A DNA stretch of 64,000 nt from Bacteroidota bacterium (lineage in GTDB: Bacteria; Bacteroidota; Bacteroidia; 2-12-FULL-35-15), in NCBI GenBank assembly GCA_040389865.1, contig JAZJZM010000014.1:39531-103530 (forward strand), given 5' to 3'. The notes below the pieces were generated by a model, which did no database searches, had not been told where the DNA came from, and saw only the letters and a program-made list of their open reading frames with translations. This document shows, piece by piece, positions 38,486 to 40,894 of this stretch. The stretch's first letter is position 1; every line of letters starts with the position of its first letter. Both the position numbers and the translations under genes were made by a program.

Positions 38486-39958
38486 TTAAAATTTCAAATA
38501 CGGCATTAAGCCATGCAAGCCTCCTTCACGGCCAAAACCGCTTTCTTTATATCCACCAAAAGGTGAAGCAGGATCGAATTTATTATAGGTATTTGCCCAA
38601 ACCACACCAGCACGCATTTTACTTGAAATATTAAATATTTTAGAACCTTTATCAGTCCAGATACCTGCAGAAAGTCCATAAGCAATATTATTCGCTTTTT
38701 CAATTACTTCTTCGATGGTGCGGAAAGTTTGGATCGTTAAAACCGGACCAAAAATTTCTTCTTGCACAATACGGTGTGATTGAGAAGCATTTAAAAATAA
38801 AGTAGGGCGGCAGAAATACCCTTTACTTGGAATAGCGCATGAAGACTGGTAAAAATCAGCACCCTCATTTTTACCTATTTTAATGTATTCTTGAATTTTT
38901 AATAATTGTTCCTTTGAATTGATGGCTCCTATATCCGTGTTTTTATCCATTGGATCACCAACAATTAAAGACTCCATTCTGTCTTTTAGTTTACGGATAA
39001 CAATATCCGCAACACTTTCCTGAATAAACAAACGGGAACCTGCACAACAAACATGACCCTGATTAAAGAAAATTCCATTAATAACACCTTCTACAGCCTG
39101 GTCGATAGGGGCATCTTCAAAAATAATATTAGCTGCTTTTCCCCCTAATTCAAGTGTTAGTTTTTTATCAGTTCCTGCAATTGATTTCTGAATCATTTTA
39201 CCAACATCAGTAGAGCCTGTAAATGCAATTTTATTGATATCGGGATGATTAACCATTGCGGCACCAGTTTTACCAGCACCAGTAATAATATTTACAACAC
39301 CATCAGGCAAACCACTATCACGAAATAATTCAGCCAATTTTAATGCTGTAAGTGAAGTTGTTTCTGCAGGTTTTAATACAACAGTATTACCGGCAGCCAA
39401 GGCAGGAGCAATTTTCCAGGCAGCCATAAGCAATGGGAAATTCCAGGGAATGATTTGTCCGGCAACACCTAATGGTTGTGGATTTCTATTTGGAAAAGCA
39501 TATTCTAATTTATCTGCCCATCCTGCATTATAAAAAAAGTGATTTGCCGCTAAAGGCACATCTATATCGCGGCTTTCACGAATACACTTACCACCGTTCA
39601 TTGTTTCGATCACAGCAAATTCACGTGCTCTTTCCTGCATCAATCTTGCAATACGGTAAATATATTTACCACGTTCTTTTGCCGAAATTTTGCTCCATTT
39701 CTCAAATGCTTTACGAGCAGACTTCACTGCTTTATCCACATCTTTTTCATCCGCTTCTGCTACTTCTGCGATCTTTTGTTCAGTAGCAGGATTTATGGTA
39801 TCGAAATATTTTTTACTGTTGGGCTTTACAAATTTCCCATCAATAAAAAGATCATATTGTTTTTGAAGAGTAACATGTTTGGTATCTTCAGGAGCAGGAG
39901 CATAGGCCCAGTCTGTTTTGAAATCCAATCCAATTTTATTTTCTTGTTTTTTGCTCAT
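38486..39958 (-). CDS. NAD(P)-dependent aldehyde dehydrogenase
   Basis: 490 aa with 'ELGGKAANIIF' (catalytic Glu) and 'FNQGHVCCAGSRLF' (catalytic Cys) blocks. Confidence 0.85.
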   Translation of the reverse strand: MSKKQENKIGLDFKTDWAYAPAPEDTKHVTLQKQYDLFIDGKFVKPNSKKYFDTINPATEQKIAEVAEADEKDVDKAVKSARKAFEKWSKISAKERGKYIYRIARLMQERAREFAVIETMNGGKCIRESRDIDVPLAANHFFYNAGWADKLEYAFPNRNPQPLGVAGQIIPWNFPLLMAAWKIAPALAAGNTVVLKPAETTSLTALKLAELFRDSGLPDGVVNIITGAGKTGAAMVNHPDINKIAFTGSTDVGKMIQKSIAGTDKKLTLELGGKAANIIFEDAPIDQAVEGVINGIFFNQGHVCCAGSRLFIQESVADIVIRKLKDRMESLIVGDPMDKNTDIGAINSKEQLLKIQEYIKIGKNEGADFYQSSCAIPSKGYFCRPTLFLNASQSHRIVQEEIFGPVLTIQTFRTIEEVIEKANNIAYGLSAGIWTDKGSKIFNISSKMRAGVVWANTYNKFDPASPFGGYKESGFGREGGLHGLMPYLKF

Positions 39959-40894
39959 TTTTTATTTTTTTGTTTTCTTTTACCCTGACAGGGGAAGTTT
40001 TGAAATCCAATCCAATTTTGTTTTCTTATTTTTTGCTCTTTTTTTTTATTTTTTTGTTTCTTTTACCCTGACAGGGTTTCAAACCCTGTTAGGCTTGAAT
40101 TAACTTAAAATTTCCGATTCTACTTTTTCCAATAAATTTTGATTTATCTGCTGATGACTAAATTTAAAATTATCAATATCCTCAAACAATCCTATCACTT
40201 CTTCCCTCTTCAATTGGGTTACCTTATCAGAAATTAAAGAATGATAGGAGGAGTATTTCCAATCTGTAATTTTTTCAACAAACCCATGATGAACAGGGTT
40301 TGAATGAATATATAAAATTAAGGATTTCAAATATTCTGATGAAGCAATTTCTTTTCTCTTGAACGAACGAAGAAATAAGCTTCCTCTTCTGCCTTGTTGT
40401 TTATTTAAAGCTTGTGAATAACCATTAAAAAAATTAGAAAACTGTTTACTAATATGAAGGCAAAAAAAATCGACATCAGTAATACCTCCTGAAAGAGCTT
40501 TAAACGCAGTTAAAGTGATATTTTCATCCGGTAATTTTTCATTCTCTTTTAAAAACTCAAAAACTTCTTTTTCCGATTTAATCTGAATAAGAAAATGAAA
40601 GTGATTCGGCATCAAACAATAGGCATAAGTGTTTGCGACAGGTGAAACAAATTCTGTAAATTTTTTCAGAAAATAAATATAGTTGTCATCATTAAAAAAA
40701 ATGGCATCGCTGCCAATTCCATGATTATAGATGTGGTAAAATTTGTCGGATTTTAATGGTTCCTGATTAGCTGCCATTTTTTTATTTCACCTCTTATACC
40801 TTGACAGGGTTTCAAACCCTGTTAGGGGTATTTTCAATACACTAAATTAATTACTCGTATTAACCCTAACAGGGTTTGAAACCCTGTCAGGGGC
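39915..40894. mobile_element. RAYT/REP unit: tyrosine HUH transposase gene flanked by REP hairpins and an 82-bp tandem duplication
   Basis: REP 'ccctgacagggtttcaaaccctgttagg' at 40066-40093 (+), 40799-40828 (+) and 40864-40894 (-). RAYT ORF at 40100-40777. Direct 82-bp duplicate of 39915-39996 at 39997-40078. Confidence 0.7.
40100..40777 (-). CDS. REP-associated tyrosine transposase (IS200/IS605-like Y1 HUH family)
   Basis: HUH motif 'LMPNHFHFLIQ', catalytic Tyr block 'LILYIHSNPVHHG'. 225 aa, flanked by REP hairpins. Confidence 0.75.
   Translation of the reverse strand: MAANQEPLKSDKFYHIYNHGIGSDAIFFNDDNYIYFLKKFTEFVSPVANTYAYCLMPNHFHFLIQIKSEKEVFEFLKENEKLPDENITLTAFKALSGGITDVDFFCLHISKQFSNFFNGYSQALNKQQGRRGSLFLRSFKRKEIASSEYLKSLILYIHSNPVHHGFVEKITDWKYSSYHSLISDKVTQLKREEVIGLFEDIDNFKFSHQQINQNLLEKVESEILS

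Follow-up and report, generated by a model that had tools for sequence, protein, structure and literature searches.

An 82-bp tandem duplication with one end in a REP hairpin, at the 5' end of an aldehyde dehydrogenase gene in Bacteroidota

Misalignment mutations, produced by slipped strands or template switching at hairpins and short repeats, are a general part of bacterial mutagenesis (covered, for example, in the reviews of S. Lovett). REP elements, too, have a record as sites of duplication: in Salmonella, recombination between two distant REPs reportedly generates tandem chromosomal duplications of many kilobases, as Shyamala, Schneider and Ames are said to have described in 1990.

Enzymes that act on REPs are known from the REPtron or REP-RAYT systems of Proteobacteria (E. 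coli, PDB 4ER8; PMC3333891, PMC3479197, PMC8266576), in which a Y1 HUH protein that has a single catalytic Tyr accompanies inverted palindromic REPs that vary in number and arrangement between strains and carry a strand-specific imperfection in the stem. According to the part of PMC3333891 that deals with cleavage and to PMC8266576, the characterised TnpA(REP) enzymes cut between C and T, or at CA, outside the hairpin, are guided by a GTAG sequence and join the ends seamlessly. The model of BIME amplification drawn in Fig. 7B of Ton-Hoang et al. (PMC3333891) predicts tandem addition of units together with capture of a flanking gene fragment. The related Y1 HUH enzymes of the IS200/IS605 elements recognise sub-terminal hairpins on one strand; these elements transpose as discrete units that are joined seamlessly at tetranucleotide sites lying outside the hairpins, and they make no target duplication. 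At the present locus, nothing has moved to a new site. Here we describe a locus of a Bacteroidota genome that shares the general traits of the proteobacterial systems, including a strand-specific stem imperfection, and that contains a tandem duplication whose junction does not fit the known cleavage rules.

Structure of the duplication and its surroundings

The following features were identified in the window, that is, the whole 64-kb stretch of DNA that was analysed.

38445-38471, plus strand: REP-d, a decayed REP copy between the stop codon of the aldehyde dehydrogenase gene and the next gene
38486-39958, minus strand: aldehyde dehydrogenase (ALDH) gene, 490 aa (Pfam Aldedh, E = 4.6e-165)
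39915-39993, minus strand: copy 1 of the duplication, functional, holding the real ALDH start codon
39994-39996, no strand assigned: junction bases, GAA on the plus strand and TTC on the sense strand, absent from both parental flanks
39997-40076, minus strand: copy 2, decayed, with the REP arm at 40076-40066, the leader at 40065-40041, the former ATG at 40040-40038 and a former CAA at 40028-40026
40066-40094, plus strand (consensus orientation): REP-c, a full hairpin, CCCTGACAGGG TTTCAAA CCCTGTTAGG(C), 5 nt past the RAYT stop codon
40100-40777, minus strand: intact gene for a RAYT-like Y1 HUH protein of 225 aa, with matches to NCBIfam REP_Tyr_transpos, Pfam Y1_Tnp and PDB 4ER8
40799-40828, plus strand: REP-b, 21 nt upstream of the RAYT start codon
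40862-40892, minus strand: REP-a, inverted relative to REP-b and directly past the deoC stop
40897-41835, minus strand: deoC (deoxyribose-phosphate aldolase; TIGR00126, E = 2.1e-56), the conserved upstream partner of ALDH

Tandem Repeats Finder reports at 39915-40076 a repeat of period 82 (2.0 copies, 92% matches, 3% indels), whose score of 278 is the highest of any tandem repeat in the window and which is the only one there with a long period. The 20-mer ATTGGATTGGATTTCAAAAC occurs at exactly two sites, 39915 and 39997, where shuffled sequences predict 0.06 matches, and direct reading of the sequence pairs 39915-39993 with 39997-40076 in head-to-tail, direct orientation. The initial annotation had described 39915-39996 and 39997-40078 as 82-bp direct repeats; the tandem arrangement and the period stand, but the units are not clean 82-nt copies, consisting instead of 79 and 80 nt of homology with a 3-nt filler between them. 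The junction of the copies, CAAAACTTCCCCTGTCAGGG, reads CAGGG-GAA-GTTTTG. In the parental flanks the loop bases AAA precede the arm and AGA follows nucleotide 44 of ALDH, neither of which matches the junction bases.

Along the sense strand, copy 1 consists of the REP arm CCCTGTCAGGG (39993-39983), a 24-nt A-rich leader (39982-39959) and nucleotides 1-44 of ALDH (39958-39915). That the real ALDH start lies in this copy, as had been annotated, is borne out by the 490-aa Aldedh reading frame and by the start ATGAGCAAAAAACAAGAAAAC, which is common to all close relatives; the N-terminus MSKKQENKIGLDFKTDW is conserved in relatives as well. Two changes in copy 1 are derived with respect to the relatives, an additional A in GAAAAC and a synonymous AAC to AAT. 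The ATG of copy 2 is indeed mutated, to AAG (40038-40040); in addition, TAA replaces CAA (40026-40028) and two A's have been added to the A run preceding the former ATG. When compared with the parental unit of two relatives (L112 and L083), copy 2 is otherwise identical, save for one change private to L112, which has TTT where TTC stands near the 3' end of the unit. The 11-nt REP arm CCCTGACAGGG is present in both copies (39983-39993 and 40066-40076) and, in agreement with the annotation, continues as TTTCAAACCCTGTTAGG into the full hairpin from the second copy only. The present order on the sense strand is full REP, leader, old start with its 44 nt, TTC, REP arm, leader and real start, so that after the duplication the REP still adjoins the RAYT stop codon and ALDH retains an intact leader. 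The REP-side breakpoint lies between CAGGG and TTT, inside the hairpin and exactly at the boundary of arm and loop, a position which supports an involvement of the REP in the event.

The REP element is a 29-nt hairpin, intergenic in all of its copies, with predicted folds of -9.3 to -11.6 kcal/mol (z = -3.7 to -5.0), a conserved G.T wobble in the stem and two arms that are direct repeats of each other as well. As single-stranded DNA, REP-c folds with -9.8 kcal/mol (z = -4.2), and the half REP with -3.1 and -2.1 kcal/mol on its two strands, no better than shuffles. REP-a and REP-b, 94% complementary and 30 nt apart, form a REPIN-like doublet. With the other REPs masked, REP-d gives the highest local alignment score (14) of the window, and it has a more intact counterpart at the equivalent place in a relative, L001; the copy in the window no longer folds, its predicted single-stranded fold being not significant against shuffles. 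With three full, one half and one decayed copy, all REPs of the window fall within 38445-40892, and none was found elsewhere in its 64 kb; such a confinement of five copies to 2.5 kb around the RAYT gene, as observed in these 64 kb, would set the locus apart from the proteobacterial systems. The sequence next to the hairpin differs from theirs: in a family consensus built on 23 distinct copies the 5' GTAG guide is absent, the 5' flank being variable and the conserved flank being G-T-A-(T/A) on the 3' side.

The RAYT-like gene lies 24 bp from copy 2. Its product matches NCBIfam REP_Tyr_transpos with E = 5.7e-17 and 62 bits, under the curated cutoff of 80, and Pfam Y1_Tnp with E = 0.0032 and 18 bits, under the cutoff of 23; its sole PDB match is 4ER8, TnpArep (E = 5e-4 with the single sequence, 2e-6 with a profile), and its homologues carry the JGI name RayT. 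The HUH motif H59-F-H61 is part of a stretch, P-N-H59-F-H61-F-L, that is invariant across 18 homologues and aligns with LPEHMHCI of 4ER8, while Y156-I-H-S-N-P aligns with Y115-I-Y-I-N-P, Y156, N160 and P161 being invariant across the 18 homologues. We take Tyr115 to be the catalytic residue of the E. coli TnpA(REP), with Tyr156 as its counterpart here. The protein, which is longer than its proteobacterial equivalents and falls under the curated thresholds, belongs to a distant, unstudied RAYT clade of Bacteroidota. Inverted REPs flank its gene on either side, REP-a lying on the minus strand and the other two, REP-b and REP-c, on the plus strand, a layout found also in L001, L081-L087 and L030. 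In most of 80 Bacteroidota loci deoC and ALDH are neighbours.

Polarity and age of the event

The duplication is absent from all 33 close-relative contigs (L001 and L081-L112, representing about 13 spacer haplotypes), whether or not a RAYT gene and REPs are present, and also from L002, L003, L004 and L030. The initial annotation had asked whether relatives might carry the same structure without any REP or RAYT, which would point to an ancient, non-mobile origin; none of the 33 contigs does. Five of them (L081-L084 and L112) have the exact parental layout of RAYT gene, one REP, leader and ATG, with a 23-nt A-rich leader between the single full REP and the ALDH start codon. Since 33 relatives have no duplication and five of these preserve the precise parental layout, the duplication is derived and private to the source genome. 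The copies differ from each other by three substitutions in 79 nt (0.038) and two homopolymer indels, and divergence from the closest relatives at four-fold sites is 0.22-0.25, which places the event after the split from them and yet not in the immediate past. A scan of metagenome DNA with a 23-mer recovered one contig only, L081, and look-ups with the exact ALDH and RAYT proteins of the window matched no contig.

Across strains that share ALDH proteins of at least 98.5% identity, the spacer between the RAYT gene and ALDH takes at least six different REP architectures. Relatives carry a half REP only (L001, L092-94), a doublet (L085-87), a decayed REP (L088/89) or a (TAAG)n repeat (L090/91), alleles which mark the spacer as a hot spot of rearrangement. 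The half-REP allele of L001 occurs alongside a dead RAYT gene. A second duplication of this type was found neither in tandem-repeat scans of L030 and L002, which have a RAYT gene at the equivalent site, nor in the spacers of the 33 relatives.

An assembly artefact, in which two strain variants were stitched head to tail in what appears to be a metagenome-assembled genome, would mimic such a private duplication. The identical ALDH protein is recorded solely from an NCBI MAG (P0001), the length differences in homopolymers could be sequencing errors, and many related contigs end 100-280 nt upstream of ALDH, from which it follows that this region is hard to assemble. The destroyed start codon and in-frame stop of copy 2, however, are seen in none of the approximately 13 natural haplotypes, so that copy 2 is not the allele of another strain; moreover, the junction possesses three bases of its own, and the copies are situated in the middle of the window, the MAG record with the identical ALDH listing a contig of 300 kb. 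We consider an artefact highly improbable.

Origin of the duplication

On balance, the evidence inclines us towards a lineage-private tandem duplication that arose from an error of DNA copying at the REP hairpin and needed no transposase step, hairpin-provoked template switching during replication being the likeliest cause. In the course of replication, or of repair synthesis, a stalling or dissociating polymerase would have halted at the hairpin apex, precisely where arm meets loop, and would have re-primed about 80 nt back, within codon 15 of ALDH; three stray bases, GAA, may have been added at this point, conceivably from a nearby TGAAA, before the interval was, by this account, copied a second time. 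Known misalignment mutations share with the present case the small tandem duplication ending at a hairpin apex, the imperfect short similarity of the ends, the few stray bases at the joint and the neighbouring alleles with deletions between directly repeated arms. The present case differs in that the joint has no clean microhomology and in that the mechanism, read from a single event, is not provable. The ALDH breakpoint sits in TTTGAAATCC, which is similar to the REP apex TTTGAAACCC; this microhomology is weak (p ~0.03, picked post hoc; 3.2% of 24-mers drawn at random from the window match the REP equally well) and predicts a junction without the 3-4 extra nucleotides observed. A candidate pseudo-REP at the ALDH breakpoint was rejected, its local alignment score reaching only 6-8 where the window averages 5.1 and peaks at 14. 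With the Salmonella duplications the case has in common a REP at the join point of a tandem duplication, and differs from them in its size of 82 bp and in its ends, of which one lies in a single REP and the other in coding sequence.

Alternatively, the RAYT-like protein itself might have nicked single-stranded DNA, whereupon a host polymerase would have extended the 3'-OH and, after a second nick on the new strand, strand transfer would have added the unit with its fragment of the flanking gene. This is the outcome that the model in Fig. 7B of PMC3333891 explicitly foresees, and an intact RAYT gene with both HUH and Tyr motifs lies close by, one breakpoint falls inside the cognate REP, and the number of REPs in the spacer differs among near-identical strains. 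Even the sense-strand junction, AAAAC followed by TTC, is formally a step from C to T, but the T of that step is non-parental, and HUH strand transfer is seamless whereas three bases of the junction occur in neither parent. The break on the REP side, at the arm/loop boundary, lies between G and T on the plus strand and between A and C on the sense strand, contrary to the rules of the proteobacterial enzymes, although these may not be the rules of this clade; the REP family, furthermore, has the 3' GTAT or GTAA flank in place of 5' GTAG. Enzymatic unit addition of this type appears unlikely, and we are a shade more doubtful that local amplification driven by a RAYT left the duplication as its natural footprint in Bacteroidota, with a nick at the arm/loop boundary, unlike the nicks of proteobacterial enzymes. 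If it were, nicking by a RAYT at this boundary would constitute direct genomic evidence for unit addition with capture of a flanking gene fragment, a process proposed long ago, and, the amplification having copied a REP arm, the leader and the first 15 codons, REP systems could remodel the 5' ends of genes. A literature search for RAYT together with tandem duplication found nothing relevant.

The three filler bases were also considered as part of an extended, 14-nt arm, prompted by the sequence of L087, in which CTTC directly precedes CCCTGACAGGG...CAGGGGAA. As the 23-copy consensus is variable at those positions and has a 3' GTAT flank, the match is a coincidence and this reading was rejected. 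Another source of TTC is the foot of the hairpin, where it stands directly after the RAYT stop codon and 3 nt ahead of REP-c (TTCAAGCCTAACAGGG): a larger duplication including the whole REP, with its left break between TAA and TTC, could have been followed by collapse of the downstream REP to one arm through slippage between its arms, which are direct repeats. Natural collapse from arm to arm is known from the alleles that have only a half REP (L001, L092-94). An 18-nt collapse between the arms of REP-c, however, predicts TTCAAGCCTGTCAGGG and not TTCCCCTGTCAGGG, so that an odd deletion of 20 nt or further changes would be required; the degenerate left arm (TTCA..) predates the split from L081 and L112, and two events are invoked where one is enough. 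We give this two-step history little credence. Of the original proposal of a REP/RAYT-mediated footprint, the involvement of the REP is retained, on account of the arm/loop breakpoint, the RAYT neighbour and the inverted REPs, while catalysis by the RAYT is not, given the 3-nt filler, the break between G and T within the hairpin and the missing 5' GTAG; the evidence fits a copying error at the REP hairpin at least as well as RAYT action.

Consequences for the ALDH leader and significance

At its birth, the upstream copy would, as computed, have created an upstream ORF of 25 codons ending 3 nt ahead of the real ATG. With its ATG destroyed and a stop acquired, copy 2 is an inert spacer today, and the duplication probably contributes little or nothing in functional terms; no promoter motif of the Bacteroidota type TAnnTTTG is visible by eye at the junction. 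Both of the substitutions private to copy 2 (ATG to AAG and CAA to TAA) abolish translation, and if two substitutions fall at random, the probability that they destroy the ATG and introduce an in-frame stop, one each, is about 0.003, a test that was, however, picked after seeing the data and has n = 2. This would fit a selected regulatory change, in which the distance of the stable REP hairpin from the ALDH start grew from 24 to 106 nt, or the processing of the mRNA was altered, and the decoy start was silenced by selection; in the predicted RNA fold, moreover, copy 2 can be looped out by pairing between the two palindromic arms. On the other hand, the stop is neutral in a copy that has already lost its ATG, and relatives thrive whether their REP lies 23 nt from the ATG or is missing altogether. 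In RNA folds of the parental and of the duplicated form, the start codon is unpaired within the A-rich leader, and an argument from accessibility was dropped for that reason. A selected role of this kind is, in our view, quite improbable.

The duplication is a fresh example of an already known kind of event, and taken alone it is a small scar that is probably neutral. It illustrates how events of this kind create decoy start codons that are later lost. The value of the case lies in a rearrangement that is dated and polarised, for which parent and derivative are both available and whose breakpoint lies exactly at the apex of a REP hairpin. With its deoC-RAYT-ALDH locus, this freshwater Bacteroidota clade offers a convenient natural system for asking whether REP turnover is driven by the enzyme or by replication, and what a RAYT of this clade cuts.

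The deoC-ALDH locus and its tandem duplication

Around the RAYT-like gene lie four copies of one hairpin repeat (REP-a to REP-d), and the start of the aldehyde dehydrogenase (ALDH) gene is spanned by a tandem duplication, with a functional unit (copy 1) and a decayed one (copy 2).

Features of the locus, in minus-strand order
40897..41835, minus: deoC (TIGR00126, 2e-56)
40862-40892 and 40799-40828: REP-a and REP-b, an inverted pair separated by 30 nt
40100..40777, minus: RAYT-type ORF, 225 aa
40066-40094, consensus strand plus: REP-c, full hairpin
Copy 2, a TTC filler, copy 1 and then ALDH
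38445-38471: REP-d, decayed
37534-38421, minus: ALDH-like gene, 295 aa

The direct repeats described in the initial annotation are real: Tandem Repeats Finder returned an array at 39915-40076 (period 82, 2.0 copies, 92% matches, score 278) that is the top-scoring tandem repeat in a window-wide scan and its sole long-period one, a 20-mer of the unit has two exact occurrences compared to 0.06 expected by chance, and base-by-base reading extends the homology over 39915-39993 and 39997-40076. Three junction bases, GAA (TTC on the gene strand), separate the copies and are unlike either parental flank. Copy 1 supplies the start codon, ATG (39958-39956, minus), of an aldehyde dehydrogenase of 490 aa (Pfam Aldedh, 4.6e-165); in copy 2, as had been noticed, this codon is mutated, to AAG, and in addition the fifth codon is changed from CAA to TAA and a homopolymer is two A longer. 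Likewise, CCCTGACAGGG ends both copies as the described half-REP, with continuation into the full hairpin in copy 2 only. The first breakpoint coincides with the REP arm/loop boundary, between CAGGG and TTT on the plus strand, and the second follows ALDH nucleotide 44.

The 295-aa protein covers Pfam positions 14-212 of 461 of the aldehyde dehydrogenase fold, just its N-terminal half; local truncation is ruled out, as most related contigs that reach this far have a gene of 294-295 aa at the corresponding position. A 453-aa ORF (36049-37410, plus), convergent with the ALDH-like gene, has no Pfam match; its counterparts in relatives are conserved, at called lengths of 436-459 aa. Short-period arrays of related G/T-rich units are located at 21921-21984 (TTTAGATGTTGGAC x4.6), 24793-24922 (GATGTTGGATGTTA x9.2) and 61541-61612 (AGTTGGAG x7).

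Spacer variation among relatives and age of the duplication

Adjacency of deoC and ALDH is seen in most of 80 Bacteroidota loci, among which RAYT intervenes only in the close clade of the window and in L002 and L030; in L003, the end of deoC and the ALDH ATG are 11 nt apart. Relatives whose ALDH protein is 98.6-99% identical diverge by 6-12% in nucleotide sequence (four-fold sites, 0.22-0.44), and in them (L001, L081-L094, L112) the RAYT-to-ALDH spacer (39959-40099 in the window) is hypervariable.

Spacer forms in relatives with 98.6-99% identical ALDH
One full REP and leader: 57 nt (L081-L084, L112)
Inverted REP doublet: 165-166 nt (L085-L087)
Decayed REP: 140 nt (L088/89)
(TAAG)n microsatellite and REP: contig starts within the repeat (L090/91)
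Half REP only: 41 nt (L092-94; a like allele in L001)

In L095-L111, whose ALDH is 96% identical, the spacer (e.g. L096 1060-1200, L095 968-1200) contains different, nested hairpin mini-elements and has alleles of 70/71, 141 and 233 nt; an insert of about 70 nt is bounded by GGCTTTGTAACGAA...TTCGTTACAATGCC, with a 92-nt insert nested inside it. Many related contigs stop 100-280 nt upstream of ALDH, which suggests assembly breaks at that spot.

The comparison with related genomes proposed in the initial annotation found the ALDH-start duplication in none of 33 related contigs. The 57-nt form is the exact predicted parent; copy 2 differs from the L112 unit by ATG>AAG, two additional A, CAA>TAA and a TTT for TTC near the 3' end of the unit that is private to L112. 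The period with the ancestral leader is 81 nt. When derived changes were polarised with relatives as outgroups, two fell in copy 1 (+1 A and the synonymous AAC>AAT) and three in copy 2. Substitutions separate the copies at 3/79 sites (0.038), compared to a neutral divergence of 0.22-0.25 between the window and its nearest relatives, so the duplication is younger than that split, yet old enough for decay. The pseudogene-like state of copy 2, and its alleles found in no natural haplotype, count against an assembly chimera or artefact, which we consider very improbable.

The REP family and the RAYT-like protein

REP-c (40066-40094) reads CCCTGACAGGG-TTTCAAA-CCCTGTTAGG and folds as single-stranded DNA at -9.8 kcal/mol (z = -4.2); a lone arm folds no better than shuffled sequence. 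The 23 distinct copies collected from the window and relatives yield the consensus (A/C)CCCTGACAGGG TTTCAAA CCCTGTTAGGG GTA(T/A). Its orientation is set by a conserved G.T wobble of the stem, which is A.C on the opposite strand, and we take this orientation to be the probable functional strand; in REP-c it is the plus strand, antisense to the genes. Whereas proteobacterial REPs have a 5' GTAG, the consensus of these 23 copies has none and shows a conserved 3' GTA(T/A) flank instead. Wobble and flank, read in 40066-40094, 40799-40828, 40862-40892 and the copies in L001, L030 and L081-L094, suggest that the functional strand is defined and that the guide may be arranged differently. REP-c starts 5 nt past the RAYT stop codon (40095-40102), a distance kept after duplication; REPs this near a stop codon reportedly lower upstream-gene expression in E. 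coli, a finding ascribed to Liang, Rudd and Deutscher 2015. The REP-d counterpart in L001 (3693-3722) is more intact than that of the window (38445-38471). Three genes in a row (RAYT, ALDH, ALDH-like) thus have a REP ahead of them, with GGGTAAA and an A-rich leader between REP and each ATG.

The 225-aa ORF (40100..40777) is, by homology, a RAYT-type Y1 HUH protein. It matches NCBIfam REP_Tyr_transpos with E = 5.7e-17, at 62 bits and thus below the 80-bit cutoff, and its sole PDB relative is E. coli TnpA(REP), 4ER8 (E = 5e-4 with the single sequence, 2e-6 with the profile). Across 18 homologues, H59-F-H61 and Y156-I-H-S-N-P do not vary, and Y156 aligns with Y115 of 4ER8, the catalytic residue of that enzyme. 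Homologues are labelled 'REP element-mobilizing transposase RayT' by JGI. RAYT is decaying in some relatives: in L001 (2064-2066; about 40190-40346 in the window) a 157-nt internal deletion takes out the catalytic Tyr region, the half-REP allele being nevertheless present, and in L083 (928-1443) the protein is called at just 171 aa.

Origin and consequences of the duplication

The attribution of the duplication to REP and RAYT is partly supported, in that the breakpoint at the arm/loop boundary implicates the REP, whereas RAYT catalysis is somewhat disfavoured. In PMC3333891, Ton-Hoang et al. proposed that enzymes of the TnpA(REP) type could append units in tandem and pick up fragments of neighbouring genes. 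In the accounts of cleavage and joining in PMC3333891 and PMC8266576, characterised enzymes cut outside the hairpin, between C and T (or at CA), guided by GTAG, and re-join strands seamlessly by transesterification. The window junction, with its three extra bases and a REP without 5' GTAG, shows none of these three features. Because the rules derive from distant proteobacterial enzymes, the mismatch does no more than lower the probability of the RAYT model, which we regard as unlikely; an origin in two steps seems less likely still.

We lean, with modest confidence, towards a template switch, in which DNA synthesis at the REP hairpin would be diverted by the hairpin and generate the tandem copy. 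This is favoured by the break at the hairpin apex, by the extra bases at the joint, typical of wandering polymerases, by the weak likeness of the ALDH site TTTGAAATCC to the REP apex TTTGAAACCC (an equally good match to REP is reached by about 3% of random sites), and by the independent collapse of REP to a half REP in other strains, which is expected since the two arms are also direct repeats.

At birth, the upstream ATG would have opened a computed ORF of 25 codons (MSKKQENKIGLDFKTSPVRVKETKK), its end 3 nt short of the true ATG. The two substitutions that copy 2 alone carries both destroy its translation, with a chance of about 0.003 under random substitution (post hoc, n=2 events), which we read as no more than a hint of selection against the decoy start. 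RNA folding places the ALDH start within an unpaired A-rich leader before and after duplication alike, and we saw no evidence of present function for the duplication. The locus works like a REPtron, from which it differs in its divergent, unstudied Bacteroidota RAYT clade, which falls below curated thresholds, and in its REP lacking GTAG. The duplication is a further case of a known type of event, local rearrangement associated with REPs or hairpins, and its mechanism is not new; its chief use is as a clean pair of parent and derivative within a hypervariable REP spacer.
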